Shown here piece by piece: positions 3,698 to 38,148 of a stretch of 64,000 nt of DNA. A model generated the notes under the pieces. The model was not told the origin of the DNA. It saw only the letters and a list, made by a program, of their open reading frames with translations, and did no database searches. Every line of letters begins with the position of its first letter. The stretch's first letter is position 1. The translations under genes and the position numbers were made by a program. The DNA is from Euglena gracilis (taxonomy: Eukaryota): the NCBI GenBank assembly GCA_039621445.1, contig CP154954.1:39641816-39705815 (forward strand), given 5' to 3'.

Positions 3698-3757
3698 TCA
3701 AACATTTGTTGTCTGTTTCCATTTGTCGCCTGGGACACATTTACATTCTTCTTCTTT

Positions 3758-11400: not shown

Positions 11401-13522
11401 CCGCACTCTCAATAACCGCAGAAATCTGCGTTGAGAGTGTGGCATCCCTACTGGTACCAAGGTATTTTGGCACGCGCAAATCGGATATTCCGAATGCGTC
11501 CAGGAAACAAACGTGAAAAATAATTTCTTTAACAGGTGGTAATAATATACCACAAAAATCCTCGAATAGTGGTACATCAGCGGGTAAATCCCACCAATGA
11601 AAACATACATAGGAGAATTGGTGAAACCAATCCGCATTCGGATTGGCGGGTATGAGGAGAGCTCCTCGCGCTTCATCGCGGAGTACTTTCTCCACCACAT
11701 CCGGAATAAGTTTAGGGGGAGGGTTCAACCAAAGCACCGTATCACCCCAAATTTTAAGGAATGTGTTGGAGTGTCGCGACCAATGTCGCGACAAGCGTGC
11801 ATGTGCTTGTGATGAAAACGCATCAATTTCCAACGACAAATCGAAGGAATCAGCCAAAACCGCGATTTTGGAGAACCATTCCTCCAAAATACGGTATTGA
11901 CCAAAATTAAATTCGTTCCATACGCGCATCGCGTATGTGTCAACCTGGTTCGCAGGTTGAAGAGCGGTAACGCAATTCAGGGATCCGCAAACATAGGCCA
12001 AGGGTGTGTCATCCACACTCCTAAGGGGCATTCCCAAGGGTTGATGGGTTGGATGGGTGCATACCCAGTACATATCATGCCAGATGGAGGTGGGGGAGGT
12101 GTGTGACACGGATTTCGCGGTCCCAAACAACAAGGCAATTCCTCGTTGTTGCAGCACTTGATGTACGGTCGCGCATTGCGATCCGCAACCAAGTGTATGG
12201 GTTCGCGAAATCGGGATTAGTGTTGATGTTTGGACTAAACATCCACAATCGAATTCTGGCTGGGCGGAAATTCTCCTACAGTGCACACATTGGTAGGAAG
12301 TGTCGGAGTAGTGGTCCTGGTCGCGCATGTTTGTCTGGTGGGGTTGTGTGTAAAAGTTGGGTTGCGCTTGTGTAGCTGCTGGGGGGCGTACAGGTGTATC
12401 TGAAAGCGATACATCTGGTGGAAAACGGGGTATTGGTGCAGCTGGGCGACTACTCGACACCGTGATCACTTCAGGCCTTTGGGCTTTCGTCTTGTAACCC
12501 AGTGGAACGAGGGGTACCGCTACTTGCTTGCCCTGCCTCATGGGGAACGGAAGTTGGTGTGTGGATGGGCAGGGGGTGAACTCTCTCGGTACACCCGGTG
12601 TGGAAAACGTTGGTAGGTGTGGTTGGTAACGGGGTAAAAGTTTTCGAAAACGGTGTGGAAAGATTGGTGGCTGTCGTGGATGACGCCACAGGTGATGAGG
12701 GTTTGGGGGGCAATGAAGAGAATGGTGATGTGCGCAAACCGTGGGAATGGCAATCCACTACCAGCCGGTGCTGACGTAAAAAGGGGTATCCCAGAATTAA
12801 GTCAGACCCATGGATTCCGGATTCGTATCCCCAGCTATACGGAAAATTTTGCGGTTGGGGGGGGTGTGAGTGGTGCTTGGGGATGAGGGGTAGGACTAAG
12901 TCCAAAATGCATCCCAAGTCACCACCGCACATGGGGGCGTTGTCAGCCGTCGTAATTTTGATCGGCTTCTTGGCTTTCACCAAGAGGGGGGTCGGTATCA
13001 ACCCGAACCGAAAAAGTAGTGCAATGCGACAACCAGTGTCAATGAGAATTTTGACTTTTGCACAAAAAATTTGGCGTGGATCGGGCATTCCGATTCACCG
13101 ATTCCTCAAGCCGTAATAGGCTGTTGCAGAAATCTTGCAAGGTTTCTTGATTGTCAGTGAGCATTTTGTCATAAAATGCCTTGAAATCAGGGTTCTCGGT
13201 AATCCGTGAACTGGAACCTGCAGGCAAAGACTGCATTTCCGTAATTTTGGTAGACACCGATGCATACCGGGTCTGGAGTTCCCCAATAGCAGTCTGAATA
13301 CCACTAATGTCCGGAACTCGGTGGGAAAGTGCGGAAAAGCTTTGTTGCAAACCCGCAATGGCGGAGTTAATCCCGCCAATGTCGGACTGCAAATACAACT
13401 GCAGGGATTCCTGCCGTTGTGCCATTTTTGCGACTTTCACGCTCAGATTGGAGAATCCAACCTGATTCGCGTCATAATAGCAGGTTTTCTGCTCCAAACG
13501 GGGAAGTCGCTCCTCCAACTGC
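8452..13522 (-). mobile_element. pol: Truncated, internally deleted copy (A') of Ty3/gypsy family A: gag fragment, protease, MTase, RT, RNase H, integrase
   Basis: Closely matches 20141-26228 plus 39241-40868 in reverse. Motifs ILIDTGC, YIDD, EVDSSDYAVG, HNHGH..CQIC, RVWVR..GPCEI. Several frameshifts. Confidence 0.95.
11495..11900 (-). other. Dam-like / DIRS-MT-like amino-methyltransferase domain within A' pol (frame intact here)
   Basis: LEIDAFSSQAHARLSRHWS...W.DTVLWLNPPPKLIPDVVEKVLRDEARGALLIP...ADWF in ORF 11138..12541, in frame with the start of RT. Confidence 0.8.
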
Positions 13523-18100: not shown

Positions 18101-18410
18101 CAAGCAAATGCTGCGGCCGAAGCAAGCAAATGGCCGCGGCCGAAGCAAGCAAAAGCAAGCTGGTGTGGCCGCAAGCAAGCATGCTGTGGGCGTGGCGAAG
18201 CGCGAAGCAAGCAAAGGCGCTGCTCGGCAAGCAAGCAAAGGTGGCCAGTAAAAGCAATGGCTGCTGGCGGCTGTGCGCAAGCAATGCTAGTGAAAGCAAG
18301 CATGCGCTGGGCGAAGCAAGCAAATGGCTGCTGTCCGGCGCAAGGCTGCTGCGCCGAAGCAAATGCTGCTGGCAAGCAAGGCATGCTCTTGCGGCGTTGG
18401 CGCGGGAAGC
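15151..18410 (+). repeat. Satellite array, left arm; ~26-29 bp unit GCCGAAGCAAGCAAATGGCTGCT(A/G)GTGCG
   Basis: Direct tandem repetition with a near-constant GAAGCAAGCAAATGG core and short variable linkers. Confidence 0.97.
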
Positions 18411-18638
18411 TGTATAGCTGGTTTAGCGGTGGGCGATGCCCTATGCTTGTCCATGTGGTATTCTTTATCTGTTTGTGGCGCTGGACCGGGTCCCCCAGTG
18501 CATCTCCCTGCATGCTCTGTGCTCTTCTCTGGGATGGGAAAAGGGTTTCTGTTTATTCTTTCAGTTCTTCCAAGGAGCCAAGGCGAAAGCGAAGGCTTTT
18601 GGGAATTGAGAAAGAGGAATAGGGGAATCAGACGTACA
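18411..18638 (+). repeat. 5' LTR of A (deletion-riddled)
   Basis: Aligns by eye to the 3' LTR (GTGGTATTCTTTA, CCAAGGCGAAAGCGAAGGCTTTTGGGAATTG, AATCAGACGTACA) with many small gaps. Confidence 0.8.
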
Positions 18639-18640
18639 CT

Positions 18641-18791: not shown

Positions 18792-18980
18792 ACGCTGACT
18801 GGCAGCGGAGGGCCCCTGCACCGTTATCACGGTCGCAGCGTCAGCTCCCGGCTTCTAGTCAACGTCTAAGCAGACGAGCAAGCTCCGGAAGGCTCTGTAC
18901 GGTATTACCCGTTACAGCCCCTCTGGTGCCAGCACAACTGCTTAGTTTTGTGGGTTTTTGTTGTTTTTGCCATCAGAAAG

Positions 18981-21900
18981 ATGAAAAGCACAAGCCCCAA
19001 CCATCAATTCAACTATGCCTTATTACTGGCATCATTGCAAGACATTGACCAAGAAACAGGGGATTGGAAGCTATTATGTGAAAGTGCTTCCATTTCCCAC
19101 GCCGATGAGGCACAATTGGCTCAATTGTCAAGACTGCAACAATTGTCATCATTGACAGTGGTCGGCGATGAGCCCTCCACATCATTGGCCTCAGAGGCCA
19201 ATGCGGCCTCTTCCGCACTCACCTTGCCACAACGGGGGTATTCGCCTCCGTTTGCGGCAATGGTGCAGCTGCATACACCAGAGAGACCCGTGGTGATTCC
19301 GCCACCGGGCTTCTCTGGTGATGGTGGACTAAAAACCCCGTGTTTCTTTCAACCCCCACCCGCTCTTCCACCGGCAAACCCTTACAGAGCTTTGCCACCA
19401 CCACCCGATCTTGGGTGCTATCCGGCACTGCCTTGGCAAGTGGAGACTCGTCTAGTGGTACCGGAATTCTCCGGTACATCCCAACCAATGGATGGCTATG
19501 GGAAGGGCACTGGTGAGCTCCTCACTGCTGAGGATGTGCACGATATCGTTGCTCGGCTTCCAGGGGATCACCCCCTTGTGAGGCAGTTCCACCATGTGCA
19601 ACAATGCGTTGCAGAATGTGCAACCGCACTGAACAAAGTGCTTCAGTTTGATGAGGACAACCAGAAACATGTCTTCAGCAAGCTGGAACACTGCTGGAAT
19701 TACTTGCAGGAAGTTGGCAAATATTGCCAGAGGAATTTTGAAAGTGCGGGTATTGACCTTGCAAACTTTCGGGAAACCTTTGACAAAATGTGCCAACAAC
19801 TCCCGCAGAACTTCCGGCAAATTAGTAAATGCATGCATGAAGCGGAAACGCGGAATGACTCCAAGTTTCTGCACTTGCATGACTCACTACAACACCTATC
19901 GGGACAAATGGAGTCCTGTTCATCCGCGTTGTTGCATTTGCAACAACAGTTGCATGCACGAGATTCCTCGTCTGCAACATCCAGTACTGGTGGATTTGTG
20001 TCTATGGACCATTTCACCACCCTATCCGCAACTTTCCATGAATCGCAACACCCCATTATGCTGTTGTGCGATGAAACGGAAAAGTTTCGGCAATTCCAGT
20101 CACAAGCCAACGATAATTTTGCTCCCCACACGTATGTGCGGCAGTTGGAGGAGCGACTTTCCCGTTTGGAGCAGAAAACCCGCTATTGTGACGCAAATCA
20201 GGTTGGATTATCCAATCTGAGCGCGAAAGTCGCGGTAATGGCGCAACGGCAGGATTCCCTGCGATTGCAGTTGCAGTCCGACATTGGCGGGATTAACTCA
20301 GCCATTGCGGGTTTGCAACAAAGCAATTCCGCACTTTCCCACCGAGTTCCGGACATTAGCAGTATTCAGACTGCTATTGGGGAACTCCAGACCCGGTATG
20401 CATCGGTTTCTACCAAATTAACGGAAATGCAGTCTTTGCCTGCAGGTTCCAGTTCACGGAATACCTAGAAACCTAATTTCAAGGCATTTTCTGAAAAAAT
20501 GCTCGCCGAGAATCAGGAAACCTTGCAAGATTTTTGCAACAGCCTATTACGGCTTGAAGAATCGGTGAATCGGAATGCCCGATCCACGAAAGGTGAGATT
20601 ACCAGGTTGGATGAGCGAATTTCCGCGTTTTTGGATAAGCCACAACCCGGAAATTTGCCCGTGGGTACCACAAACACGTTGTCGGATGACCCTGCACCGG
20701 TTGTATCCACTACCACACCAACCAAGGTGACACCACCTTTGCAGATTCTCTCAAAAGCTGTAAAAGCATTAACGGGACAACTCCAATTACTGGATGAGTC
20801 TCACGGGAAACTTGTCCAAGATGTCACCGGAATATCCGAAAGGATTCTGCACACGGATGACTTTTCCCGTTACCGCAAGCATATTCGCGCTTTGGAGGAT
20901 GAGGTTGACCGTATTTGCGGCCAACTCCAACTCGCTGAGCATTTGCAGCATAGTGTGCATGACTTGTCTGTGGGTCTGGACAATGTGTCCAACCAACAGC
21001 GGGTTTCAAACCGAAATTCGACAGTATGCATTGCCGAAGATGCGCCAAATGTTCCAGATTCGCGTTTTCACAACCCGAATCTAGGTGCACATGCACCACC
21101 ACCACCACCCGTGTCCCGAGTGTCACAACCCGCGATTCCGCGAATTGTGCCACCATTGGCCTTGCCCACAACCCAAACCCAGTTTTCGGATGAATTTCCC
21201 AATAAGGGAACCGAATTTTCGGAAAACACGGCGATTCCGCCAAGTCTCCACCAAGAAATCCATCATTCCATGCTTGTGCGTAGAATGTGCCAAACCTGTA
21301 CACTGGGAGTGGGTCACATGTTGCATGCACGACATACCCCCACACCGGAGTGTCCCCCTATTACGGGTGACCAACAGGGTTTGCGACCGGAGATCCGGTA
21401 CCAGGATTCACCTTCACCAGAAATTTCGCGATTCCGACAAGAATCCGGAAAGGATACGCTTGGTGCTCGAGCGTACCCGGGCCCGAATCCACAGAATACC
21501 ACCGAGGGTCATTGGGTTTCTCAGAAAGACTTCAAAGGCACCATCGCAATCGCGAACAAGGTGAAACCCCAGTGGGACGGTGATCCAACCACATGAAGAC
21601 AGTTTTTCCGGGACTGGGAGTACTACTGGGCATTGAAGGGGCCAACCCAGGACACAAACCCGGAGGTGATCAAGATGGAATTCATCGATTGCCTCCCAGA
21701 GGATGAGAAGGAGCGCGCGCGACAACTCGTCATTCGCTAACGCGTTTCCTTTGATGACCTGGTGGAGCAATACGCTTCCACCAGTTCAAGTTTGGTCGCT
21801 AGGATTACTCTAGAGACCAAGTGGCGGCAATGCGCCCCACCCGATCGCAAGTGGAAGTCCATTGACCAATGGTATGCCAAATGGTTAGGACTTGCTGCTG

Positions 21901-23115
21901 AAGTGGATGAACTCAGTGAAAAGCAAATGCGCGAACAGTTTGACTCTGTTCTCATGCATTTCACGCCTAGCCTCATTAAGGATATCCACCGTGAGGAGTT
22001 GGCGAGTCATCCCATGACTCTTCACCAACGCTGGAATTATGTTTCCAAGCAGTTGAAGCTATCACAGCTTCTTGGTCAGATTCAATCCGCGTATAACGCA
22101 CACCCAACCACTGGATTACCGGCTGGTTCGGTAAACGCATTGCAAAAATCACCGGTTTCACCCACTTCACCCACCACGGGATTGAAAACGCGATACCCGC
22201 GTTCTTCGGACCAAGCCACGGATAAAGTGTGCTTTTTGTGCAACAAATCGGGACATATGTCTCGGGAGTGCCCTAATCCTGAAGCACAAAAGCGTGTTCA
22301 GAGCCCGCGAGGCTCGACCTCATCACCGGGTTTGGGTTCCTCCGCGCTTTCACGCCAATCGGGCAATTCACAGTCATCGGGTCCCCGTTCCGGTGGTATT
22401 AGCCCCCGGATCCCGTTCCGCGATGAGCGGAAACACGGTACCCCTCGGGGTAGGTCACCCGGTGCCCCGGCCAAGAAGCGTGATCCTTATCGCGAGGCAT
22501 CGCGATCGCGTTCACGAAGCGGATCATCCTCTTCGCGATCCTCATTGGGAAAACCCTGATACACCGGTCATGGTCGACGGGATACCCGGTCACCACGACG
22601 GTTTGACGGGAAATCGGGAAACCGATCCCCCCGTTATCCATATTCGCGACACAAATCTCGGTGTTCGCTTTGTGGATCGAGTGATGACCACTCATCCAAA
22701 TGTCCACGTTCTCGTTCTCCGCGCCCTGGCCAACGTCATCGCGGTATGAATCGCGGTGACAAGGGTCATTCCTCCAACCGCCATAAAGTCGGTTTCAAGA
22801 TTTCTTGTTTGGAGGATGACACCCCGGCTTCGGGCAGGGAGGGGGATGAGACCACGGATACCGATTTTGACGAAGCCCGCATGGCGGTGCGCACGTTGAA
22901 ATCCGTTTATACCTCTAAAAGGCCCATAGCCGACTATTCGGCCGGTTCGGACATGGAGCAGGGGAGCCCGAGGTCCGAGGGCACGGACCTCTGGGCTGAT
23001 GAACAGATGGAGGTAGGACCTGATCAACCCTGCCCCCCCCTGCCCATCTGCCTTCCTGGTCGGTACCCGGAAAATTTTCGGGTCCCCCACCCCCCACTCC
23101 AACTTTCCGCTCGGA
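18981..23115 (+). pseudogene. gag: gag of A (coiled-coil-like region, two zinc knuckles, RS-rich tail), with in-frame stops
   Basis: ORFs 18948..20468, 20499..21596, 21762..22559 and 22746..23267 share one frame. Knuckles CFLCNKSGHMSREC and CSLCGSSDDHSSKC. Confidence 0.8.
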
Positions 23116-26100
23116 ATGTTGTGCAAAGTAGGAAAGGGTTCATGGGAAAGCTGGCAAGAAAACGTATTTTCGCCAGACCCTTCACTTTGCTTACCCCCCA
23201 TGGAACTTTTGGTCCAAGCGGAAATCAAAATCCAAAATTTTTGTGCAAAAGTCAAAATTCTCATTGACACTGGTTGTCGCATTGCACCACTTTTTCGGTT
23301 CGGGTTGATACCAACACCCCCCTTGGTGAAAGCCAAGAAGCCGATCAAAATTACGACGGCTGACAACACCCCCATGTGCGGTGGTGACTTGGGATGCATT
23401 TTGGACTTAATCCTACCCCTCATCCCCAAGCACCACTCACACCCCCCCCAACCGCAAAATTTTCCGGATAGCTGGGGATACGAATCCGGAATCCATGGTT
23501 CTGACGTAATTCTGGGATACCCCTTTTTACGTCAGCACCGGCTGGTAGTGGATTGCCACTCCCACGGTTTGCGCACATCACCATTCTCTTCATTGCCCCC
23601 CAAACCCTCATCACCAGTGGCGTTAACCGCGACAGCCACCAATTTTTCCACACCGTTTTCGAAAACTTTTACCCCGTTACCAACCACACCTACCAACGTT
23701 TTCCACACCGGGAGTACCGAGAAAGTTCACCCCCTGCCCATTGACACACCAACTTCCGTTCCCCATGAGGCAGGGCAAGCGAGAAGCGGTACCCCCCTCT
23801 TTCCACTGGGTTACAAGACGAAAGCCCAAAGGCCTGAAGTAATTACGGTGTCGAGTAGTCGCCCAGCTGCACCAATACCCCGTTTTCCACCAGATGTATC
23901 GCTTTCAGATACATCTGTACACCCCCCAGCAGCTACAAAAGCGCATTCCAACTTTTACACACACCACCACCAGACCAACATGCGCGACCAGGACCACTAC
24001 TCCGACACTTCCTTCCAATGTGTGCACTGTAGGAGAATTTACGCCCAGCCAGATTTCGATTGTGGATGTTTAGTCCAAACGCCAAACACTAACACCGATT
24101 TCGCGTACCCATACACTTGGTTGCAGATCGCAATGCACGACCGTACATCAAGTGCTACAACAACGAGGTATTGCCTTGTTGTTTGGGACCGCGAAATCCG
24201 TGTCACACACCTCCACCACCTCCATCTGGCATGTTATGGACTGGGTATGCACCCATCCAACCCATCAACCCTTGGGAATGCCCCTTGGGAGTGTGGATGA
24301 CACACCCTTGGCCTATGTTTGCGGTTCCCTGAATTGCGTTACCGCTCTTCGACCTGCGAACCAGGTTGACACATACGCGATGCGCGTATGGAACGAATTT
24401 AATTTTGGTCAATACCGTATTTTGGAGGAATGGTTCTCCAAAATCGCGGCTTTGGCTGATTCCTTCGATTTGTCGTTGGAAATTGATGCGTTTTCATCAC
24501 AAGCACATGCACGCTTGTCGCGACATTGGTCGCGACACTCCAACACATTCCTTAAAATTTGGGGTGATACGGTGCTTTGGTTGAACCCTCCCCCTAAACT
24601 TCTTCTGGCTGTGGTGTATAAAATCCTCCGCGATGAAGCGCGAGGATCTCTCCTCATACCCGTCAATCCGAATGCGGATTGGTTTCATCAAACTATCCTA
24701 TGTATGTTTTCATTGGTGGGATTTACCCGCTGATGTACCACTATTCGAGGACTTTTGTAGATTATTTTTACCACCTGTTAAAGAAATCATTTTTCGCGTT
24801 TGTTTCTTTGACGCATACGGAATATCCGATTTGCGTGTGCCAAGATACCCTGGTACCAATGGGGATGCCACACCCTCAACGCAGATTTCTGCGGTTATTG
24901 AGAGTGCGGACCAACACCCCAAGTCTGCTGACTATTGTTCGCGTATTACTCGCGAATTCCATGGTGTACTGGATAACCCAGTTTACGCCTGCGACATCGA
25001 CCCCGCGATTCGCGGTCTGTTCGGTGTTTGCAAAATCGAGCTCAAGGATGGCGCTAAGCCCATGCACCGGAAATTCTTCCGTTGTTCGGTTAAACGCGAA
25101 CAAGCTCTCAACGAGATGATTGAGAAGCTCATCCAGCGGAAGTGGATTATCCCTTCCAAGAGCGAATGGACATCACAAGCTTTTGTGGTGCCCAAACCCG
25201 CTGACCAGTCTGGTCAGAACAAGTGGAGATTGGTGCTGGATTACCGGTACCTGAACTCCCAAACGAAGGATGACCCCTTCCCGTTACAGCTGATCGAGGA
25301 TTTGATCACCAAACAATCGGATAACAGGTTGTGGTCAATCTTTGATCTAGAAGACGGTTTTCATCAGATGTATTTGCACCCTGATTCACAACCGTACACG
25401 GCATTCGTGACATCCAAGGGTGTGTACCAATGGACGGTACTCCCTATGGGTGTTAAGAATGGCCCAGCCATGTTTCAACGCATGATCCAGTGGGTTTTGC
25501 GCGAATTACCGTTTGCTCTGGTGTACATCGATGATGTACTGGTGGGAACCCAACCGCCATCCGCGAAATCGGGCGAGGATATCCTCGAACCGCATTATCG
25601 CGATGAGCGGGCGGTATTATCCGCGTTCAAAAAGCATGTGCTTTTTGTCAAGGGTTCCAAAATGCACCTGTTTCGCAAAATTATTAAGTTTTGCGGGCAT
25701 ATCCTGAGCAACGGGCAGCGTCAAGCCGCACCCAGCAAGATGGAGGCCATTAAGAAATGGACTCCTGAGGTCATTAAGACCTTAACGCATTTAAAGGGAT
25801 TTTTGGGATTAGCCCAATACTACGCGATTTACATGAAAGATTTCGCGAAAATCGCGGTACCCCTAACCCGACAACTCAAAAATCGGACACCCGATAACGC
25901 AAAAGTCATTTGGGATGACCAAATGCGCGAGGCCTTAAATAAAATCAAGGACTTGCTCGTCGAGAACGTGGTTCTCGATATCGCGGATCCATACAAACCG
26001 TACGTCCTGGAGGTCGACAGCAGCGATTACGCTGTTGGCGGGGTTCTTATCCAGCATAATGCGGAAAATGAACTCCGACCTGTGGCTTTCTTCAGCAGGA

Positions 26101-26228
26101 AGCTACAGGGCGACAACGGGAAAGGACAGGTTAAACGGAGCGTTCGCGAAAAGGAGACATATGCCATTGTGCTAATTCTCCAGAAATTCCGCAGCTGGAT
26201 AGCCAGCAGCCTGGTCCAGATACTGGTG
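23116..26228 (+). pseudogene. pol: pol of A, 5' part: aspartic protease, Cys/His segment, MTase, RT, RNase H (cut by element B)
   Basis: ILIDTGC; WLNPP; RLVLDYRYLN, FDLEDGFHQM, LPMGVKNGP, YIDD; EVDSSDYAVG, PVAFFSRKL, EKETYAIV. Frameshifts near 24080 and 24690. Confidence 0.95.
24410..24815 (+). other. Dam-like / DIRS-MT-like amino-methyltransferase domain within A pol
   Basis: IDAFSS motif, NPPP at 24584-24595, LLIP..ADWF. One frameshift near 24690 relative to A'. Confidence 0.8.
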
Positions 26229-27315
26229 TGACGACCGTTTGAGGTCGACCGCCGGGCGGCGGAGTTTTTCCCTTTTAGAAGGCCTTTTGAGGGCGGTTTT
26301 GCTCTAATTTTAAGGCTTTCTAAAGATTTCCATTAAAATTCCCTCTCCCAGGGCGCCCATGGTTTGGTTGTGCAAGGAGAGAGATTGAGTGATGCTAGGT
26401 ATTCCCAAAGGGTGATTTTGGGTTTTTAGCACAATTTAAGCTTTTTATGCATTTCTCCTTTGGTTTTGAGGGAAAATGTTGGATTTAGTGAGAGCGCTTG
26501 CAAGCGCTTGGAACAGAATTTTAAGAGATTGGCGCCTGAGTTCCTGGAGTTTTTGCAGGGGTTTGCAAAGCTCAATAATGATGGAATTCAGCATAATTTA
26601 TCAAAATCAAGGGGGGAAACCTTGATTTTGACTTTGGTTGGTTGATTTTGATGCAATGGGCAAGAATTTGGGATTTGAGAGCGCTTAGGAATCAGCGCAC
26701 TCAATCCTAAATTTAACTGCCCATCAAGGGCATCAAAATCATTTTCTTTTCACAGGGTTTTCCTCTTTACCTTTTACACCATTGTACTTGTTGTGGCAAT
26801 TACATCCAATTACAATCAAGAATTGAGTTTGGAATTTCAATTGCAATGGAAGATCAACAAAATCAATCATTTGAAGAAGGAGAGGTTTGTCTTCCCCCCA
26901 CCTCATCTGTGGGAAAAGGGGCAGGGGGGTGGGTCTCTTCAACTCAGGCAACCACAGGCCATTTTTCACCCCAAAACCCCCTTTTTGGCCCAGAAACTGT
27001 GAGAAATGACACCCAGGGGGGGGTGTTGGCTCTCACTGGTTCAGCTGAGCAGGGAGGGGTTGAAACCCCAAAGGCACCCCCCTTGGAGATCCCAGTGACA
27101 CCCCCCTCAGGGGTCGGGGAGGGTCCACTGGGAAGTTCCTCCTTGGAAATGATGGCCCAGTTTCGGCCACAGGGGGGGCCAGAATGGGAAAAAATTTCCG
27201 ACACAAGTCGGCTCGAGGAGCCAAAAAACGACCCTACGCCGGAAACTGGCCCGGGGCGGGGGTTTCCGCTTCACCCCAGCGCTGCCGGGGGACACGGCAG
27301 CACGGGTGTGAAAAA
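26229..27315 (+). repeat. 5' LTR of B (1087 bp)
   Basis: Direct repeat of 38149-39236, with roughly ten differences seen by eye. Confidence 0.97.
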
Positions 27316-30300
27316 TGGTAAGCAGAGGTTGATCCTTCAGCCTTCTGTCGGAAATTTTGGGTTTGAAATCCCTGCTCAGAATGTTTTCTTTGATGATCAG
27401 CCAATGGCCCAATCTCAGTTGGCAAATCTGACGATTGGAGTTTCGGGGAACAGGGAGTTGGGACCCGAAACCAGTTTATCTGAACTCAGAACCCCCACAA
27501 ATATGGGACAGATGTTGGAATTTCAGGGTGGGGATGGCCAGGTTGTCATTTCCAACCAACCGTGTTTTCCAGAGCCTTTTTCAGGGGTTTTGCCTTTGCA
27601 AAATATGGGGTACGGTTTTGTGCTGCCTGAGTTGCAACCTCTCCCAGACTTTTCATGGGTACAAAATTTAGGGAATCTGCCATCATTACCCGCTTTTGCA
27701 TTGCCTTTGCCTCCAGCTCAACCAGTTTCTTCAACACCAGCCCAAGAGCCGGTGGCACTTTTGCAGTTTTCCCAACCATCCCAGGTAGATGGGCTGGCGA
27801 AGGAAACGGGAAGTGCCTCGGCAGGGCAGGGGGGTGATAACCCCAGCCCAGTTTTCTTTGAAAAGCAAGCACAGGTCAATGTGCTGGGCTTAAACGATAA
27901 TAATAACTGGGACAGCGGCGAACGGGTCAGAGCAGAAGTCGAGCAGGCAGAGGAAAACCCGAAGGACCAGCCCAGCTCTACTTCTGCTCGACGACCCCGA
28001 ACACCGGCTTCATCACCAGGCAGTGATGAAGTTCAGCAAAAACGGCTGCACCGTGAGGTTGATCACGGTCAGCCAGCAGCTGCTGCAGCCCCCCAGCCTC
28101 CTCATATTTTCATCGAGGGGGGTGAGGAGGAGGTCCAACCCCCAGCCTATGAAAGTTCTGAAGCCACCCCCAGGGGGGGTTCACAAAATCAGGGATTTGA
28201 AGACCCCTGGCGGCAATTTTTACAAAGTAACAGAGACCTCCAGTGGACTGTGCAGCACCTGACTTTTCGGGTTTTGGCTTTGGAAAAAGCCAACGAAGAG
28301 TGGGTTCTGCAACAGCAGCAGCAGCAGCAACAACCCCCCGCAGTCGACATCCACCTGGTGGAGCACATGGCTGCACGAATCGAAGAAACGGCCAGGGCTG
28401 ACTGCCTCCATATTTTTGAACTTTTTGAGAAAAAATGTGAAGCCCAGGTGCAAATTTCTGTGCAAAAAATTGACGCACAGGCACTTGAACTTTTTGTTGG
28501 GCAGGAAAAAAGTTTTGAGGAAAAACTGGCCCAGCAGTTTTCTTCGAGCCGTGATCAGTTTTTGGCCCTGAGGCAGGAATTTTTACGAATTTTGGACAAC
28601 CTGCCACAGGAAATTTTGAAACAAGTGCAAAATCAGGTGGCTGCCTTTCCAATTAAGGATCTCGTGCTTGAAAATTTTCAGCGGTTTGCTGAGAATTTTA
28701 AAGCCGCCCAGCCAGCTCAGGGGGGGGAGGCAGAAACTCTCCAGGAGCTGGCCGTTGTCGCTGCCAAAATCGTTGAAGTTCAGGCTGACCTGGTATCGCT
28801 GCGTAGTACGGTACAGGGCCAGGCTCAGCAGCTCCAGCAGTTCGCTGATTATGTTCGCCAGCTGGGTGAGCAAAATTGAGCAATGAATACGGCCCTCCAT
28901 GGTTTTGGTGGTGGTATTCAGAAACTGCACCAGAATATTTCAGATGAAGTAGGGAAACGACACTCAGAAATGCAAAAACTGTTGACGGATTGTCAGCAGA
29001 ATTTTCAGAGTGTTCATCAGCAGATTTTTTCCCAGGAGAAAAAATTTGGTGGGCTGGTGGAGGAATTAAGGCAGGGACTTGCAAAAGTTGGGGGGAACAC
29101 TTTCGAGTTGCAGAAAGTGTTGCAGGATTTACAAAAAAATGGACCCGTACACCCAACTGCAGAACCGAGAGGAGTTTTGCAGAAAATTTCTGACATGTGG
29201 TGGCTGCGGCAGGGCAGCCAGCAGCCCCTACACCCAGTGGAGCTGCCACAGCCTGGGCAGCAGCTGGCCCAGCAGCCCGTCGTCCAGCTAGCCCAGCAGC
29301 CTGGCCAGCCAGCAGGCCAGTCGCAGCCTGCTCACGGGCTGCCAAGGGGGCTGGGCCTGCCGTCGGCTGGACAGCAGCAGCCCCTGGGGCAGCCTTCCAG
29401 CTCACTGGCCAGCACGGTGCCCAGTGCTGACCCAGCATTTTCAGATCAGATTATTTCTCAGAATAAATCTGCAAGTTCAAACATTTCCCCTCCCTTAGTT
29501 ATTGAGGGGGGATTTGTTTTGGAGGACACACAAGATACGGCAGTGGTTTCTTCTGTGTCATTGTGTGTCCCCCCACATGTTCCTGCAGCCCCTGCTTTCT
29601 CGATTAGGCCCATCGGGACAGGGGGGGCTGCAGCCAACCCAGGTAACGGGTTGGGTTTTCCTTTTATCGGTGACCCAGTAGCTTTTGAAATTTTGCAGGG
29701 AGGTGCTAAGCCCTATTTTGATGAAGCGGGCAGCATTTCCTGGCAAGATTTTGAAGTAGATTGGAATCTTTACTGGGATAGGTTGACATCAGGGAAACCG
29801 TATTCTGATTTGCAAAAGCTGCAGGTTTTTGAGGCATGTTTAGGACCCAGATTAAGGGAGGAAATCAGGCTCTATCGGTTGAATGGAGCTAAATTAAGTT
29901 ACCCCACCATATTAGCCCAATTCCAGAACCGTTATGCCTCGAGTAAGGGGCTGACGGCTCGGAAAATATGGCAGGAGGTAACTATGGTAAACGAAGGAAA
30001 AATTACCCGGGCTGATCTGCAAGAATTTTGGATTAAATTTTGCAGTGCCTGGCACCATGTAAAGGATGCCACAGCTGGGGAGGCTCGGAGATTATTTTTG
30101 GAAAGAATTCCTCCTTTTTTAAGCAAGTTTTGCATAGAAGAGGAGGATAACCGAGCCCGTAAACAACCCATTGTCAGGCTCACAGGGATACCAAATCCCA
30201 CGGTGGATGGGATTAAAAGGAGTGTGAGCCAGATCACAGGGGGTATTGATCCACGGAAAGTGGTTATCAAAAACCCTGGTGCCATTTGCCTTATTTTCAG

Positions 30301-31026
30301 TTCTTCGGAGGAGGCACTGAAATTAACAGCCGTAAATGGAAGGAAATTGCAGGGAATGGAAAATTTCCTCAACGCCGAATTGGTGGAACAACTAATGACC
30401 GTTGAGGAAATGTTTGCTTTTGCCGAGGGCAGGTTGGCTCTTCGGGAGAAGCAGGATTTGGCTTTGAATCAGCACCATTTTCCCAGATTATTCAGCAAAT
30501 CGACAACAAAAGGCTCGGGGAAAATACAGGTGTTGGAAAAAGGCCAGACCCCCCCGGTGTCCCCAACATCCGTTTCAGCACCAGCGGCCGGGGGGCAGGG
30601 TCACACCTCAAAATCTGCCCCACAGCCAGCTCCAAAGGGAGATAAGGGGCCAGCCCAGCCAGCCCAGCGGGGCAGGTCCCCTTCTTCGTCTTCGCGGCCA
30701 GGTGCAGCTTCATGGTCGCGAACCCAAAGTCCAGCACCCCCAGCCCGGCAAGGCAAGGGCAGACCTGGACCCCGCAGGCATCGGGTCGGGGCAGGTCGCC
30801 ATACCCATGCTTCAACTGTGGGGAGGGTTGATATTATTTCTATGAGTGTGATAAACCGCTGAGTGAGGCCCTTGCTAAATCTAAGGAATTTTGGCAAAAT
30901 AATGGAAAAGGCAAGGGGCAGCCCAAGGGTAAAGGGCAGCCAGCCACTCAGCGAAATTCCTCAGGCAAGGGGGGTGCATGGTCAAAGGGGGGTGGGCCCA
31001 CCTCTTCTCCCCCTGGGGCCCAATAG
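26846..31026 (+). pseudogene. gag: gag of B, starting inside the LTR; internal TGA and a late frameshift
   Basis: ORFs 26846..28879 and 28883..30862 are in one frame. A degenerate knuckle, CFNCGEG*YYFYEC, lies at ~30808-30850 in a shifted frame that ends at TAG 31026. Confidence 0.8.
27316..27335 (+). promoter_or_regulatory. Primer binding site of B (tRNA-iMet-like, imperfect)
   Basis: TGGTAAGCAGAGGTTGATCC directly after the 5' LTR. Confidence 0.75.
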
Positions 31027-31300
31027 AGGGGCCAGGGGCAGTTTGAGAAGGGGGGGGGCTGCCCATGGCCGTGTCTCTCCCCCCTGTGAGGAAAACGGTG
31101 TAAATATTTCTGATTCAAAAAACTGGGTTGTACAGGATTTTATGGCTGATTCAGGGTGTGGTGAAAAACATTCTTTGGATCAGCCCCCCAGATCTTTGAA
31201 TCGGACTCGTTACTCCTGGAGGGAAGGGAAATGTTCAAGGGTTCCCATTTTGCATACAAACCTGCCACAGCCCAACCCCCCACCATCAGCCCAGCGACCT

Positions 31301-31485
31301 CAGGCATTAGACTTATTCGCTGGCACGGGTTCAGTAGGGAGGCGGTTGGCAGAACGGGGGTATGAAGTTTTGTCAATTGAAAATGCTCCTTGGACGGACT
31401 TCCACCCCCACACAGACATTTTGACCTGGGACTACAGGCGATACCCGGTTGGATTTTTTGAGGTTATTGCCGCAAGTCCCCCCTG
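31301..31485 (+). pseudogene. C5-cytosine DNA methyltransferase, N-terminal half (motifs I-IV)
   Basis: ALDLFAGTGS (motif I), SIE (II), DILTWDY (III), FEVIAASPP followed by TG of the expected catalytic Cys codon (IV). Confidence 0.9.
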
Positions 31486-34400
31486 GCTCCCGTAAATCCT
31501 TTTGCTAGGTGGGGGATCGCCACTATCCAACCGGAGTGACGATCCACACACACAAGCATGGAGTCGTAAGAATTCCCTTCCCACTCCACGAGAGGCATGC
31601 TAAACATGTCAAGGGCCATCGAATACATTACGGCTGGGGGTATGGGTGTAGATTCCACTAAACCCTTAAGACTCGCCGGCCTTCGGCACGCTTGGCAAGT
31701 CCCACAAAGGCCCATGACTCCTTTAGCAAAATCTCGAGCGAGTGAGGAATCAGCCCAATCATACCTAAGGGACATGCATTCCCATAGCCTTGGGAATCCC
31801 ACATGCCCTTGGTATGAGTGGTGATCCCGAATGAGTTTTTCTTGGAGAGATTTGGGCACACAAAGCCTCTCCTCGAAAAACATTTTGTCACCAAAAACCT
31901 TTATATTTTCAGGCCACGGCACCTTTGAATCCTGGGTAGCTTGAAAAATTGGTGACCAACGGGGACATTTTAAATATTCCTCCTTCCACGATAAATCCCA
32001 CACAGAACCAGGGGGGATGGGTGAGGAATCGGTTGTAGAAGTGGCTTCCCCCCCCCTAACCACTCAAACCACCTGAAGACAACACAGGTGATTCTCGGTC
32101 TGCCCCAGGTACCTCAGTGGTAGCCGCAGCAGCAGGTTCAGGGGTTGGCATTGTTGGCGAAGCTGGTATAGAAGTGGGTGTCAATGGAAAATGCTCCCCC
32201 CTTGGCTCTTGGACCTCCTCCACAAGACTTGTCTCATTCCCAAACTCGTCAACCCGAGTTGAGAATGAAACATGTTTTCCTTTTTCTCCCTTGGGGGTGG
32301 AGGTTGAACCCATACCCTGGGGTTTTGTTCCTCCAAGTGGTTCTGACTTCCTATCCCCCGGTCGTGTGCACCGTCCACCCGCGTCCCCGGACCCCGTGGT
32401 AGCACCACCCCGTGTGGTGACTCCACGAATGTATGTGTTGGCTGTGGTTGGTTGGTCCACCAACCGTAGCCACATACATTCGGCTTCCTCCATTTTTTCT
32501 GTTTGAATGATTTCCCTCATTTCCTCGGTGTCAAGGGCTGACCCATGCCTTGAAATGTCCTTCAAGGCTTGGGAGGCCGGGTAAGCCTATCTTGACAACA
32601 AATCGGCTATGGTATTCTCCCGCCCCGGGATATACCCAACCGACAAGTCAAATTTTGATAAAATCTGATGCCACCTAGCCCTTCTCCCAATGGGACCACT
32701 TGGCGTGTCTAGAACCTCTCTAGCCCAAGATTCTAGAGCCTTGTGGTCCGTGAGAACCAGGACGGGCTGCAGCCCAATCCATGATTCCCACTTTTGTAAG
32801 GCTAGGATTATGGCATAAGTCTCCTGTTCCCTAGGTACCCAGTTTCTTTGGCTGCCCGTTAGCTTCCTACTCATGAAGGCGACAGGCACAGTACGCTTGG
32901 CCCGTACATCTTCTGGAGTAGGAGCCCTATCCTCCCCAACCAATTGTTCAAGGGTGGCACCAACCGCATACTGGCTGGCATCCACTCTTAAAACAAATGG
33001 TTTGTCTGGCTTAACGTGTTGTAAAATTAATTCACTGCACAACAGTGATTTAATTTTTTCAAATGCCTCAATGTCGGATGGCTCCCAAGAAATCCTTTTC
33101 TTGGAACCCTTCTTGCCGTCCACTCGTGAAACTTTGAGCTTATCTTGAAGGCAAGCGACAATGTGGGCGTAATCCTTCACATAGGAGCTGTAATAATTTG
33201 TGAACCCCAAAAAAGCACGTAGACCCGTGATTGTTTGGGGTAGCTCCCATTTTTCAATGGCCATCAGCTTTCCAGGGGATGGTTTTCTCACCCCACCACC
33301 CAGAACATGGCCACAAAACTCAACTTCTTTTACGAAAAGACGGCATTTTCTTTTGTCAGCTACAAATCTGTCTTTTCGTAAAACTTCAAGGACTCTTCGC
33401 AAATCCTTGTCGTGTGCTGCGAGTAAATCCTCACCAGGACCCACTCGAGTTCCAATCAAAATGTCGTCGATGTAAGGATCAGCCACGTCCCCCACTGGGA
33501 AGAGGCGATCCTCCATCATTTGTTGAAACTGCTGGCTTGCGTTTGTTAGACCCATCACATTAACCCTCCACTGAAAAAGACCGAGGGGGGTACTACAACA
33601 TGTGATGGGCCGGCTTTCCGGATCCAACGGCTGTTGGTGGAAAGCCTGCCGTAAATCCAAGATGGAAAACATCATGTTTCCACCTTGTTTTACCAGGAGG
33701 TCTTCAATTACGGGAAGGGGGTAGGACACACGCCTAGTTTGACTGTTAGGCCCCCGCATGTCTACCACTCCCCTCCATTCACCTCCTTTTTTCGGCACTA
33801 CAAACGTTACGGACAGCCATTCCGAAACTGTTCCCTTGGGTAATCGCTCAACAAATTTCCGGTCCCACCATTCCTGTGTGACCTTTTTGTGAGCTTCAAA
33901 TCTTTCACCATGTAAGACAAAGGGTTTTTGCCTTGTGGGTACAGCCCCCTCCTTCAGAGGAATCTGGGCGTAACCATAAGGTCCCCGTACGGGAGGGTCA
34001 GGGGGTACCTCCGTACCCAACACCTCCCCTTCATAATCCTGAAAAATTTTATCCCGAAATGCTACCACCCTGGGGTCCTCCTTCTCACCCGAATCGCGAG
34101 CCTGGATTATGGCATTCACTGCCTTGTCCTCGGCTGGCGATTCGTTGAGATGCTTGGCTATGGTATGCAATTCCTTCTTGCCAAGGAATTTTGGTTGCAT
34201 ATCAAAGCCTTGCAAGGGTAGGTGCAAATTCATTTTTTGCAGGTCCAACCACACCTTTTCTTTTTCCAGGGACTCCGTGGTTGGTGCGTTTTCAGGGGAT
34301 TCACCGGAGTCAGAAACCACAACCCCAATTCTTTTTTGTGAATTGTGTTTTTTCTTCCCCTTATGGGATTTCCGTTTCTGATTTCTTGTATCCCACCCGT

Positions 34401-35322
34401 ACAAGAAAGTCAGATTAGGATTGTCAAAAACCAAAGCCTTATGGTGTGGGAACACACCCAGACCATGTTCGGCTAACCATGGAAATGATAATATAGCATC
34501 TACCTCAATATCCGCGAGGTAGAATTCCCCTTCGAGGTACAAGGCCTGGGTGCCCCCCTGCCCCGTACCCCTGCGTTGAAAACCCAACTCCAACTTAATA
34601 CACTGGTCGCCCCCCAAAACACATTGGCCGTTGGCAGCCACCAGCTGAATTGGCATTTGCGGTGACCTGGCCAAATGTTTTGGGACGATGGACCTTTTGA
34701 CCAGGTTCACCTGGGCTCCCGTGTCAACCAAAATTCTGAGCTGCCTGGCATCTCCGTTAGGGAGATACGTCTGTGATGACATCAAAAGTTGCAGCTCGTT
34801 TTCAATGGGCAACACCTGATTAACCTTCAAGGTGTTGGCCAAATGACGACAACGGTCTGTAATTTCCCATTCCTCAAAATCCTGGGAATTTTGGGAAATT
34901 TCTTTGGGCTGGCCCCCCAGAATATCCCCAGCACTTAGGAGATAATCAATCACCAGGGGGGGTATCCTTCCTTTTTGTCGGGAGGTAAACTTCATTTTTC
35001 TGCCCCCCAACAATTCACGGTGCCGGAACTGCCCATTGTCCCCCATCACCAGGTTAGGACATGATTCGCCATCACACAACACCGACCGTAGTTGTGAAAT
35101 GGCTGGGCAGCACCAGAAACGTGTGGGCTTTTTATAACCCCAATCCGAAAACTGACAATAATCAATGTCGATAAAGGGCAGGTTTTTCACCACCTCCCTA
35201 TTTCGCAAGAGACCAGTGCGGGGGTTCTCCAACCACCACAACTTTGGCTGAAAATAATTTATAATTTCCAGGGCTTTCTCCACCAGGGCATCCGCCTGGG
35301 AGAAATCCCTCGGCCTGGGGTT
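31486..35322 (-). pseudogene. pol: Inverted segment of B pol: MTase C-half, protease, RT, RNase H, linker, integrase N-part
   Basis: ORF 32587..35370 holds WWLENP, ILVDTGA, LDLRQAFHQ, YIDD, VDASQYAVG and LTDH. ORF 31464..32063 holds HHSYQGH..CGTC and ALDMFS..VCVDRHSG. Confidence 0.95.
34935..35322 (-). pseudogene. C5-cytosine DNA methyltransferase, C-terminal half (motifs VI-X), in frame with the protease
   Basis: RDFSQADALVEKALEIINYFQPKLWWLENP (motif VI), YCQFSDWGYKKPTRFW (VIII-like), RIPPLVIDYLL (X-like). Confidence 0.85.
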
Positions 35323-36268
35323 CAAGCAAATGCTGTTGCATGCTTGGCGACCTTTTGGCGTCCCTTCCATTATTACTTCCGATCTGGGCTCACATTTTGT
35401 CGCCGGTTGGTGGCAGACAATGTGTGCCTTGATGGGAATTAGGCAAGCCTACTCCCAGGCCTACCATCACCAGGCGAATGGTAGGGTGGAGAGGGCTGGC
35501 CAACAAATAATGGAACGGCTTAAGAAAATTCAGGTTGAGGACAAGCTGAATTGGGTCGAAGCCCTCCCCCAAGCACTAGACCGTATTCATGATACGCCGG
35601 GGGAGAGTGGCCTCAGCCCATTTCAAATCTTGTTCGGTCGACACCGTTCATTGGGTGGTTTACCTTATGAACCGTTAAGGGATTGTGAAGATGCCAGATC
35701 ATTTTTCTCTCGGCAAAGAGAAATTGATTTGGTAGTAGCTGGCAAAATGAATAATTTGCATGCCAAGCAATGTGCTCGGGCCAACCGTGGTTTGGACGGT
35801 TGGGAGCCATTGGAGGTGGGGAATCTGGTGTGGTACCTGAGACCCCCCGATAGTGGCACGAAATTGGATTCCCGTTGGTTGGGCCCTTGCAAGGTTACCG
35901 CGAGGGAGGGAATTCATTCCTACCTGATTGAGGTTAAACCGGGCCATATTATGAAGGCCCATCGGAAGGCTTTGAAGGTATATGTGGAGGACCCCACATC
36001 CGATAAGCCTATCCCCCTGTTTTTCCACCGGCGGACGGTACCTGAGGCGGAAGGTGCCCCAGATACCTGGTTAGTGGATAAAATCCTAAACCACAAGTTC
36101 GTTAAGGGAAAAATGTTTTTCTTAACGAAGTGGCAAGGGTTTGAGGAGGCGAATTGGGAACCGGTGGAACATTTTTTCCAGGAGTACAATAGTGACGTAA
36201 TAGCGTATTGCCTGGGAAAAGGGTTGCCGTTAGATGTCTCTAAGGATTTAAAGGCAACGGCAACCTGA
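35323..36268 (+). pseudogene. pol: Integrase core/C-terminus and chromodomain of B
   Basis: FGVPSIITSDLGSHF, HHQANGRVER, LDSRWLGP. Chromodomain WLVDKILNHK...FLTKWQGFEEANWEP. Confidence 0.93.
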
Positions 36269-37559
36269 AAAAGGGGGAAAAGGATTGGTGAAAAAGGGCC
36301 TGGAGTGGTTGCCTGGGGAGGGGGAGGTCCGCTCTATGCCTCTTCACAGATGCAGGTGGACACCATCACAGGGCTGAGGCCCTGGGAAAAATGACGGGAG
36401 TTTCCTCGTCATTGGTTTCATTTTTTTATTTCTCCCCCTGAAGTTTTCATTCACCACTACACCCTGGTTTGGGTGAGGCTGGTGTGGGCAATCGAGGATA
36501 TTTCATTGCCCCTGTTGATTTTTCTGCCATTTTCCATTGAACTCCCGTGAAAGGATTTCAAGGGTGAATGAAGGATTCTCGTGGCTAGGGGGAAACTAGC
36601 CAGGGATCTTATTCTATTTTTTTTAGGTGGGTGTTTTCCAATCAAAGGATCCCACCCCGGAACGGGAAGGGATATTGCCAACAACAACAAAAGCAAAACG
36701 TTGAATGAGTGCATGATTGCCACCTGTTTTGTTTATGTTGTTGTGGGTGGATTCCGGTTTGGAAGTTTCACCAAAAATTCTTAAAGAAGACAAACCACCG
36801 GAAGCACCACCGAGGGTTTGTTCTTTTGACAGCCTCCTCCAAGTATTGGAGGGGGGGGGTAATGACAATGTGGTTTTGGGATTGCCCTGTCGGTTTGGCT
36901 GGGCTAAGCCACATTGGTAAATTTTCAATTGGGGAAAGGAACCCCCACATAACGGTGTGCATGGTTTGCCACCACACTAAGGGGAGGCAAACCGGCACCC
37001 AAGGAAGACGCCGAAGCCCAACACCCCGAACTTCGACGAGGCGTTTGGCTCTAGCAACCATCACCATCCGTTTCGTTCACCTACTCAGGACGGATTATCA
37101 ATTTGAAGTCTGGGACTCTGAATTGGATGAACTGAAGACGGAGTTCAAACTATTTCAAGGAGTTGCTTTCTGGTATCAGTGTACGAGGAGCACGTGGAGT
37201 GAGCACGTGGAGATGGTAATTTTGCCGTTCTACCCATGCCGCTAGCCATCCTGACCTCGACACCACACACTTTTTGTTTGCACCCTTGTCCTGAAAGAGG
37301 AATCTGTGAATTTGTTTCAATTGGGGGGGGGCGACCCAGATTCAAGGCGGTGGGCTTTGAATGGGTGGTTCCACCCTCCTTTCCCTTCCCACGGGTCGGT
37401 GGCACTCGTGGGGGGGGGTCCCTTTCTCCAATCGGTTTGATTGGCTATTTTATCATACCCCCACCTTTGGGCAAGTGAGGCCCGAAACCCCGGTCGGCTT
37501 GATCGGGGGGGGGGGGCTATGTTATTATTTCCCAAAAAAATGAAGTGAGTTGTCTTCTT

Positions 37560-37870
37560 CAACCTCCCCGCCAGGGGGGGGGGCAAGGCAAGCCCTCCCT
37601 TTGCCTGGGGGGGGGGCGGTTGCCCAAGGCTTTCCCCTGGGGGGGGGGCAAGTCAAGCCCACCTCTCGCCAGGGGGGGGGGCAATCATTTCCCCAAGTCT
37701 TTCCCCTCGGGGGGGGCAAGTCAAGCCCTCCTCTCACCGGGGGGGGGCAAGCTTTTCCCCAAGGCCTTCCCCTCGGGGGGGGGGGCTGATTTTCATCTAT
37801 CACTGAAAGGAATTTTGGTGATAATGGACCCTCCATTCCCTTCACGGTTGGGAATACCGTGGGGGGGGGG
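37560..37870. repeat. G-run/C-run tandem repeat in the 3' UTR of B
   Basis: Recurrent CCCC(T/TC)G9-11CAAGTCAAGCCC and CCAG9-10CAA units. Confidence 0.85.
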
Positions 37871-38137
37871 CTGATTTTTATCCATTCAAAAAAGGATTTT
37901 TTTTGAGTGGTGTTGGACCCCCATTTCCCTTCACGGTGGTGAGAACGGTGGGAGGGGCAGGCTCGGTGTGGTTGGAATAGAATCTATGGCCTAATAGATT
38001 CCTCCACACCGTTCCGCCACTTATGCACGATCTCGAATGATGTTATCGCAATTGCGTTGCAAAAATTCAAAGTGTCTTTCATTCCCATCCCAAGGAAAGC
38101 GAGAAGGAGGGGGGGTGAAACCCCCGACTTTCGTCGC

Positions 38138-38148
38138 AAGGGGGGGAG
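38138..38148 (+). promoter_or_regulatory. Polypurine tract of B
   Basis: AAGGGGGGGAG immediately before the 3' LTR. Confidence 0.9.

Follow-up and report, generated by a model that had tools for sequence, protein, structure and literature searches.

Does a retrotransposon that carries a DNA methyltransferase-like domain keep this domain for its chemistry or for something else? The question is raised by a stretch of 64,000 nucleotides of the Euglena gracilis genome (assembly GCA_039621445.1, contig CP154954.1, positions 39,641,816 to 39,705,815 of the forward strand; hereafter the window, with its first letter as position 1), in which two copies of one Ty3/gypsy family of long terminal repeat (LTR) retrotransposons, here called A and A', encode a Dam-like domain upstream of their reverse transcriptase (RT). 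The domain had been pointed out in an earlier reading of the DNA letters without database searches (the sequence-only reading). Our overall explanation, to which we assign a probability of about 0.78, is that A and A' are decayed copies of a chromovirus of the recently described DAM-LTR type, and that the Dam-like domain is kept in their lineage and eroded in the sub-clade to which the window belongs.

Two decayed copies of one chromovirus-type family

A single Ty3/gypsy family of chromovirus type is represented in the window by two copies, both of them decayed. In copy A, the open reading frame (ORF) 24074..24733 (+) reads ...EIDAFSSQAHARLSRHWSRHSNTFLKIWGDTVLWLNPPPKL...RDEARGSLLIPVNPNADWFHQ and includes EIDAFSS...WLNPPPKL, while in copy A' the 539-aa ORF 11138..12757 (-) holds the same peptide and runs uninterrupted from the protease-RT linker through the Dam-like domain to the start of RT. 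The peptide quoted in the sequence-only reading was recovered in both translations. Its placement of the domain at 24410-24815 and 11495-11900 was right as to location, and the extent proved slightly wider, at about 24359-24839 and at 11471-11950, according to the AlphaFold2 (AF2) model and hidden Markov model matches. The domain measures about 160 aa in both copies, and when the entire window was scanned in all six frames with a profile built on alignment A1 (68 sequences), it was found only in A and A'.

Copy A is the more complete of the two and lies on the plus strand. Its coiled-coil-rich ORFs 18870..20468 and 20469..21596 gave weak Pfam matches only (Retrotrans_gag, E 0.28), and we infer that they are gag from their position upstream of a nucleocapsid CCHC zinc knuckle (22230..22271 in ORF 21741..22559; PF00098 zf-CCHC, E 8.3e-6, 26.1 bits against a cutoff of 20.8). 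The following region (23017..23700), with DTG at 23266-23274 and ILGYPFL at 23509, had no Pfam match at E<=1; we take it to be an aspartic protease from its consensus motifs and from related polyproteins, of which P0014, P0038 and P0005 gave weak RVP or Peptidase_A3 matches. It is followed by a four-cysteine (Cys4) knuckle of the form CxxCx11CxC (24019..24069), by the Dam-like domain (~24359..24839; motif I-like IDAFSS from 24482, motif IV NPPP at 24584-24595) and by RT and RNase H (24860..26231; RVT_1 E 3e-25, RT_RNaseH_2 E 1.3e-24). An unrelated LTR element (26225..39234, +) lies nested here and separates RNase H from the integrase; its two LTRs (26225-27313 and 38145-39234) are 99.17% identical over 1090 nt, and the homology of A' skips this 13-kb insertion, passing from 26233 to 39302. 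The integrase itself (39241..40965) is spread over three frames (Integrase_H2C2 E 7.8e-8; rve weak, E 0.024; SH3_Tf2-1 E 4e-7), and a chromodomain (40882..41103) matches PF00385 Chromo at 40969-41100, just after SH3, with 27.1 bits against a cutoff of 25.1 and with an in-frame TAG at 40966-40968. Precomputed Chromo matches also exist for the related proteins P0154-P0160. The order of pol is protease (DTG), CxxCx11CxC knuckle, disordered linker, Dam-like domain, RT, RNase H, integrase (H2C2, core, SH3) and chromodomain. The sequence-only reading had placed the domain between protease and RT in a chromovirus-type pol with a DDE integrase, and both statements hold.

Copy A' (8452..13522, -) is 92-97% identical to A by self-BLAST, in four blocks: A' 13075-13522 corresponds to A 20588-20141, A' 11165-13074 to A 25145-23232, A' 10159-11170 to A 26233-25221, and A' 8452-10018 to A 40868-39302. 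A' is therefore truncated at both ends, since homology stops at A 20141 on the 5' side and at A 40868, within the integrase C-terminus, on the 3' side; it also lacks A 20589-23231, a 2.6-kb internal deletion. Its Cys4 knuckle lies at 12239..12289 (-) and its uninterrupted Dam-like domain at 11471..11950 (-), with NPPP at 11725-11714. The two copies differ by frame shifts near 24084 and near 24690, the latter moving the C-terminal half of the Dam-like domain of copy A into another frame, and in A' the RT, RNase H and integrase are broken into several frames. Both copies are dead: A is frameshifted and split by the nested element, and A' is truncated, deleted and frameshifted from RT to integrase.

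A predicted phage Dam-type methyltransferase fold

Within Pfam, PF05869 Dam was the sole family matched in both domain ORFs (E 1.3e-4 and 5.4e-4; 22.2 and 20.1 bits), and in PHROGs the domain matched phrog_111, annotated as DNA methyltransferase, with E 6.1e-7. A phmmer search of 1.84 billion representatives returned 278 matches at E<=1e-3, 76 at <=1e-10 and 7 at <=1e-30. In alignment A1, 60 of the 68 sequences match PF05869 at E<=0.001 (best 2.1e-18), and four of ten long relatives exceed the PF05869 gathering score (P0020, 37.9 bits; P0027, 39.7; P0021, 31.6; P0029, 29.5). Because these passing homologues are linked to the window domain at E 1e-17 to 1e-22, the homology of the window domain to PF05869 is transitive.

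The AF2 model of the domain, made with alignment A1, is a compact alpha/beta structure of high confidence (predicted local distance difference test, pLDDT, 91.0; predicted template modelling score 0.84). A fold search of BFVD gave 18 matches at E<=1e-3, with phage DNA N-6-adenine-methyltransferases at the top (E 6.9e-9; TM-score 0.63-0.67). In the ESM Atlas, the matches were all eukaryotic clusters (top score 0.92). In a VIA-align comparison with 48,161 PDB representatives, methyltransferases dependent on S-adenosylmethionine (SAM) made up nearly all of the best 50 rows, led by PCIF1 (Z 9.8), a putative RNA methyltransferase (9.8), METTL5 (8.6) and KsgA (8.6), and including T4 Dam (8.0), M.BseCI (7.9), M.TaqI (7.4) and EcoDam (7.2); these scores of Z 7-10 are little above the Z 7-8 that is a common best score for this tool. 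The profile, phage family, model and fold searches agree on a methyltransferase, as the sequence-only reading had proposed for a Dam-type amino-methyltransferase, and the Rossmann-fold match by which it wished to be judged was found. Together, they support a predicted phage Dam-type Rossmann methyltransferase fold for the window domain. The phage PF05869 and phrog_111 enzymes provide the best fold matches (BFVD E 6.9e-9 to 1e-5) and share with the window a motif I-like D-x-F and an N-P-P that end neighbouring strands. Unlike them, the window domain is embedded in a polyprotein and has Pro as the fourth residue of its motif, and it is only 12-20% identical to them.

A constant part of pol in one RT lineage

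Relatives were collected by a search with the RT-RNase H ORF of copy A for longer proteins (186 matches at E<=1e-20), of which the 120 listed were scanned with the Dam profile. At least 32 RT relatives among these 120 carry the Dam-like domain. Of the 29 proteins that resemble the RT most (P0153-P0181), 26 have it upstream of RT, and the three without it (P0154, P0165 and P0178) start no more than 20 residues from the start of the RT match; judging by these starts, they are truncated proteins rather than domain losses. Of 19 related polyproteins, 16 have an LxDTG[AC] protease motif upstream of the domain, and the order Dam-RVT_1-RNaseH-IN was found in P0017, P0029 and P0111. Word-index searches yielded one match among Dam relatives of near length and three among longer relatives with the profile.

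The RT-RNase H tree (48 rows) gave the same picture. Every row with a strong Dam match belongs to a single clade of 32 rows (Shimodaira-Hasegawa-like approximate likelihood-ratio test, SH-aLRT, 100; stem 1.79), 27 of which bear the Dam-motif label, and the window belongs to a sub-clade of nine rows within it (SH-aLRT 100). P0201 and P0241 lie outside the clade and are labelled 'noDAM' in the RT tree; their weaker Dam matches imply that Dam domains occur on other RT backgrounds too, in agreement with the preprint discussed below. Two copia-type polyproteins also contain a Dam-like domain, in the orders rve-Dam-RVT_2 (P0148) and Dam-RVT_2 (P0108).

Towards P0155-P0161, uninterrupted open proteins of 1,313-1,805 aa, the identity of the window family is 40-45% in the Dam-like domain versus 66-78% in RT-RNase H; towards P0153 the values are 72% versus 83%. 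By these identities the domain evolves faster than RT, yet it is clearly conserved. The sequence-only reading had named two outcomes that would speak against a genuine domain, namely neutral evolution and absence from most family members; at the level of the lineage, the retained identity and the presence in 26 of the 29 nearest relatives, with exceptions that begin at RT, speak against both. These comparisons of predicted proteins show the Dam-like domain as a constant in-frame part of pol in the monophyletic RT lineage that contains the window family.

Erosion of motif IV and an upstream Cys4 knuckle

According to a review on amino-methyltransferases (PMC7544214), the consensus of their motif IV is (D/N/S)PP(Y/F/W), with a final residue that stacks on the target base and an initial one that abstracts the proton. 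The window domain departs from it: the codons AAC CCT CCC CCT encode NPPP at 24584-24595 in A and 11725-11714 in A'. The codons bear out the earlier claim that both copies have NPPP rather than NPP(Y/F/W). Among 130 aligned relatives, motif IV reads NPPF in 52, CPPF in 8, NAPF and NPPW in 6 each, NPPI, NPPY and HPPD in 5 each and HPPN in 3, and the NPPP of the window is the only one in that set. The same 130-domain alignment contains entire clades of transposon-borne Dam domains with a non-canonical motif IV (CPPF, NAPF, HPPD, HPPN), so that erosion of the catalytic motif may be common among such domains.

The loss of the aromatic residue follows the phylogeny. The window and its eight nearest RT relatives read NPPP, HPPL, NPSL, HPPA, HPPA, HPPS, NPPI, NPPL and NPPI, with an aromatic residue in none of the nine, and a profile alignment places His instead of Asn at the first position in four of them. 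The next 12 RT relatives read NPPF (eight), NPPY, CPPF, HPPF and NPPP, with an aromatic residue in 11. The same nine sub-clade sequences have DAFSSxAH in the motif I region versus DAFAxxxN in the others. The tree of the Dam domain agrees: in a 14-row clade (SH-aLRT 97), the fourth residue is I in five rows, V in two, L in one and P in two, with one fragment, and the three rows with F or Y each have other motif defects. P0011, from a Logan assembly and 64-70% identical to the window domain, reads HPPP.

A second feature sets this sub-clade apart. The CxxCx11CxC motif, about 115 residues upstream of the Dam-like domain, is present in seven of the eight nearest relatives versus none of 11 others, with the consensus (F/Y)QCxxCxRI(S/T)xQPx(F/Y)DCGC. 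Its carriers are P0003-P0007, P0018, P0153, P0155-P0158, P0160, P0161 and the window copies. AF2 predicts the motif as a small hairpin knuckle (pLDDT 69-79), with a linker after it that is disordered.

Relation to DAM-LTR and DIRS elements

The sequence-only reading did not know the arrangement as described. This has been overtaken by Fernandez-Moreno et al. (May 2026; bioRxiv 10.64898/2026.05.21.726589), who define 'DAM-LTR' retrotransposons as Ty3/gypsy LTR elements with Dam domains, chromovirus-like ones included, and speak of 'the first identification' of such domains in LTR retrotransposons other than DIRS. In our full-text literature search, this preprint was the only report found of such domains. 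According to its main text, 10,030 eukaryotic Dam proteins were found by hmmsearch at E<=1e-5, with about half of the transposon-associated ones on LTR elements; these form five lineages (chlorophyte chromovirus-like, chloro-ochrophyte, ichthyosporean, Pyropia and Euglena). It further reports that Asn-Pro-Pro is conserved and mostly followed by Tyr or another aromatic residue, and that N6-methyladenine (6mA) is enriched on DAM-LTR insertions in three species.

By its predicted domains, the window family is a DAM-LTR element in the preprint's sense, as far as the main text defines it. A Dam-like domain and RVT_1 share one ORF (A' 11138..12757; RVT_1 E 3e-25 in A), and the integrase is of the DDE type, with the Integrase_H2C2, SH3_Tf2-1 and weak rve matches given above. 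Like the published elements, the family combines a Ty3/gypsy pol and, within the RVT_1 ORF, a Dam domain of prokaryote/phage-like type; like the chromovirus-like ones, it ends its integrase with a chromodomain. The predicted fold is compact in both cases, with a five-stranded sheet and flanking helices in the preprint, and the Asn-Pro-Pro triplet is kept in the window copies. The difference lies in the residue after it, which is mostly aromatic in the published elements and never so in the window and its eight nearest relatives. The main text of the preprint makes no mention of a protease, of a Cys4 motif or of non-aromatic sub-clades, which its figures and supplements may show. Sequences of the window's sub-clade score 17-25 bits against PF05869, which would correspond to E-values above 1e-5 in an hmmsearch of proteome or ORF scale, and the sub-clade may therefore have been missed by the screen as described there. 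As far as we have seen in the preprint, a sub-clade with an eroded motif IV and an added Cys4 motif is not in print.

DIRS elements use a tyrosine recombinase, and their methyltransferase domain follows RT-RNase H. In the window family the domain instead precedes RT, and the integrase is of the H2C2/SH3/chromo type, so that it does not have the organisation of a DIRS1-like element, although both are retroelements with the same family of Dam-like (PF05869-type) domain. The preprint names the DIRS domain as the likely source of LTR-borne Dam domains.

Proposed function and alternative explanations

In intact relatives, the domain would be produced within Gag-Pol and would lie adjacent to RT in the particle. 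Under the model in the preprint's main text, the domain of canonical NPPF relatives would N6-methylate adenine in the reverse-transcription product, and methylated new insertions would then resemble host chromatin that is 6mA-marked and permissive. In the window's sub-clade, the base-stacking aromatic residue, and often the Asn too, would have been lost from motif IV, and the Cys4 knuckle would have been acquired upstream. We consider that the sub-clade domain is somewhat more likely a non-catalytic or non-canonical module binding nucleic acid or SAM than a standard adenine methyltransferase. The sequence-only reading had suggested a domain that is inactive, binding-only or altered; the motif loss on which it relied is real and, because it spans the whole sub-clade, strengthens the idea.

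The comparison with known proteins is an analogy in mode of working only. METTL14 (EPPL) and MTA9 (NALW) are eroded, non-catalytic partners (PMC7544214), and METTL14, like the sub-clade domain, is eroded at the aromatic and the first position of motif IV while the fold is kept; unlike that domain, for which no catalytic partner is known, both belong to the MT-A70 family of class beta. The zinc fingers of METTL3, N-terminal to its methyltransferase domain, are required for RNA binding (PMC7544214), and the Cys4 knuckle upstream of the Dam-like domain might correspond to them. A more specific proposal, which we put forward tentatively and rate below even odds, is a pseudo-enzyme sub-lineage with motif IV (N/H)P(P/S)(I/L/A/S/P), His in place of the Asn after motif I, a gained Cys4 knuckle and purifying selection in intact polyproteins of 1,300-1,800 aa, whose domain would bind cDNA or an RNA:DNA hybrid or engage the host 6mA machinery, and which may lie below the detection of the published screen.

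Other explanations differ widely in how well they fit. That the resemblance to Dam is fortuitous, a low Pfam score on a short NPP stretch without a methyltransferase fold, would agree with scores under the Pfam gathering threshold and with the missing PDB sequence match, but hundreds of homologues, transitive links to Pfam-passing proteins, a model of high confidence and phage Dam models matched in fold at E 7e-9 leave this with next to no probability. It is also very improbable that the stretch is a fragment of a DIRS-type or other mobile element that inserted into a gypsy copy and has since been propagated with it. DIRS elements were the first known carriers of Dam domains, the preprint infers transfers from DIRS to LTR elements and cautions about nested or chimeric cases in Euglena, and the window is rich in nested elements. 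However, linker, Dam and RT form a single open frame in A', the protease-Dam-RT order recurs in 16 of 19 polyproteins and the domain in 26 of the 29 nearest RT relatives, one and the same sub-clade emerges from the RT tree and from the Dam tree, neither RT nor RNase H is present upstream of the domain, and the element has an integrase of the H2C2/SH3/chromo type; the nested fragment is already largely refuted.

A more serious alternative explanation, though in our view a less likely one, is that intact members still possess an active amino-methyltransferase, in which the changed fourth residue (I/L/V/A/S/P) shifts efficiency, substrate (for instance RNA:DNA hybrid, ssDNA, RNA or N4-cytosine) or sequence context and does not abolish catalysis. 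The fold and ten nearly invariant positions are kept, N-P-P is retained in the window, P0159, P0160 and P0161, the domain persists at 40-45% identity in long open polyproteins, and its nearest solved folds include the RNA N6-adenosine enzymes PCIF1, METTL5 and KsgA. On the other side, the stacking aromatic residue is missing in all nine sub-clade sequences and the proton-abstracting N is H in four (roles as in PMC7544214), the eroded METTL14 and MTA9 are non-catalytic (PMC7544214), and no transposon Dam domain has yet been proven active, as far as the preprint reports.

A number of observations weigh against the explanation that we prefer, a decayed DAM-LTR chromovirus with a domain kept in its lineage and eroded in its sub-clade. 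As to the identity of the domain, its scores against PF05869 (22.2, 20.1 and 22.9 bits) stay under the gathering score of 28.1, a sequence search of the PDB gave one chance match (E 0.43) and a profile search none, and Foldseek found no PDB match at E<=1e-3, the best being PCIF1 at 2.1e-3; the VIA-align scores are little above their common level. As to its erosion, the family positions D49, F51, W63, F70, W74, W80, P83, P84, K94 and P107 are all kept in the window copies, and the Asn of motif IV is kept in these and in four of the eight nearest relatives. Aliphatic residues such as I, L and V could still pack on a base. Moreover, expression of NPPF-type transposon Dam domains in dam- E. coli yielded no 6mA in the preprint, so that the motif may not predict activity. 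As to conservation, the relatives are metagenome proteins whose intactness is deduced from ORF length only, and between A and A' the ratio of nonsynonymous to synonymous changes (dN/dS) is near neutral, at 0.74 for Dam, where 170 codons show 27 differences, and 0.86 overall; such values would be expected of two decaying copies and, with few differences and both copies dead, are uninformative on the family. As to the element itself, no LTR pair flanking A or A' was found by BLAST of their flanks in the window.

The host data belong to the same side of the balance. Contigs from host DNA (run X1) aligned to copy A in 57,694 pieces at 90% likeness or more and in all 30 bins, which implies that the family is highly repeated in the host. 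At position 24690, only eight contigs (depth 15,810 of 275,500) are without the frame-shifting base and are thus A'-like; most aligned host copies share the broken frame of A, and A' is the minority form. This pattern may reflect either the amplification of a defective master or a bias from aligning to A. No variant was seen at 24593-24595 among the 40 variant rows listed of 429. The RNA runs contributed 91, 66 and 193 aligned reads, mostly partial, of which 75%, 86% and 35% continue into unlike sequence; RNA support is minimal and we make no claim of expression. Reads of runs X21 and X22 pile up at 22977-23035 and 24194-24264, where matches of 60-70 nt pass into unrelated sequence with consistent flanks; these seem to be short fragments of the element embedded in other transcripts.

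Surroundings of the two copies

The remainder of the window is repeat-rich. The element nested in copy A (26225-39234) contains an RT-RNase H ORF at 32590-35448 (-) and a rve/Chromo ORF at 35258-36265 (+), and may itself be composite. Immediately downstream of the A chromodomain, 41412-46620 (+) holds three long GC-rich ORFs of 639, 559 and 275 aa (~60% GC), which had no Pfam match at E<=0.01. Two tandem arrays (15146-18339 and 47750-52300), 74-84% similar to each other and internally, flank the copy A region; a 146-nt match of 81% between 18495-18640 and 47595-47752, at their inner edges beside the satellite repeats, was the only one found by BLAST of the flanks. Further RT ORFs lie at 55030-58089 (-; 1,020 aa, RVT_1 and RNase_H, non-LTR type), in a block of 70% GC at 54000-62000, and at 3515-6448 (978 aa). 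No host genes were recognised among the ten largest ORFs of the window that were scanned.

Implications

The locus itself is unremarkable, a repeat-rich region with two dead, nested copies, and nothing in it is functional. Its relatives are of wider interest, as retrotransposons with DNA-modification domains of their own illustrate the adaptation of mobile elements to the epigenomes of their hosts, and Dam-carrying LTR elements have been recognised only in 2026, as far as the preprint indicates. The low profile scores of this sub-clade suggest that screens with strict E-values undercount Dam-carrying elements. A sub-lineage in which the fold is kept, the stacking residue lost and a zinc knuckle added would be a natural experiment on whether the value of the domain to the element is catalytic.

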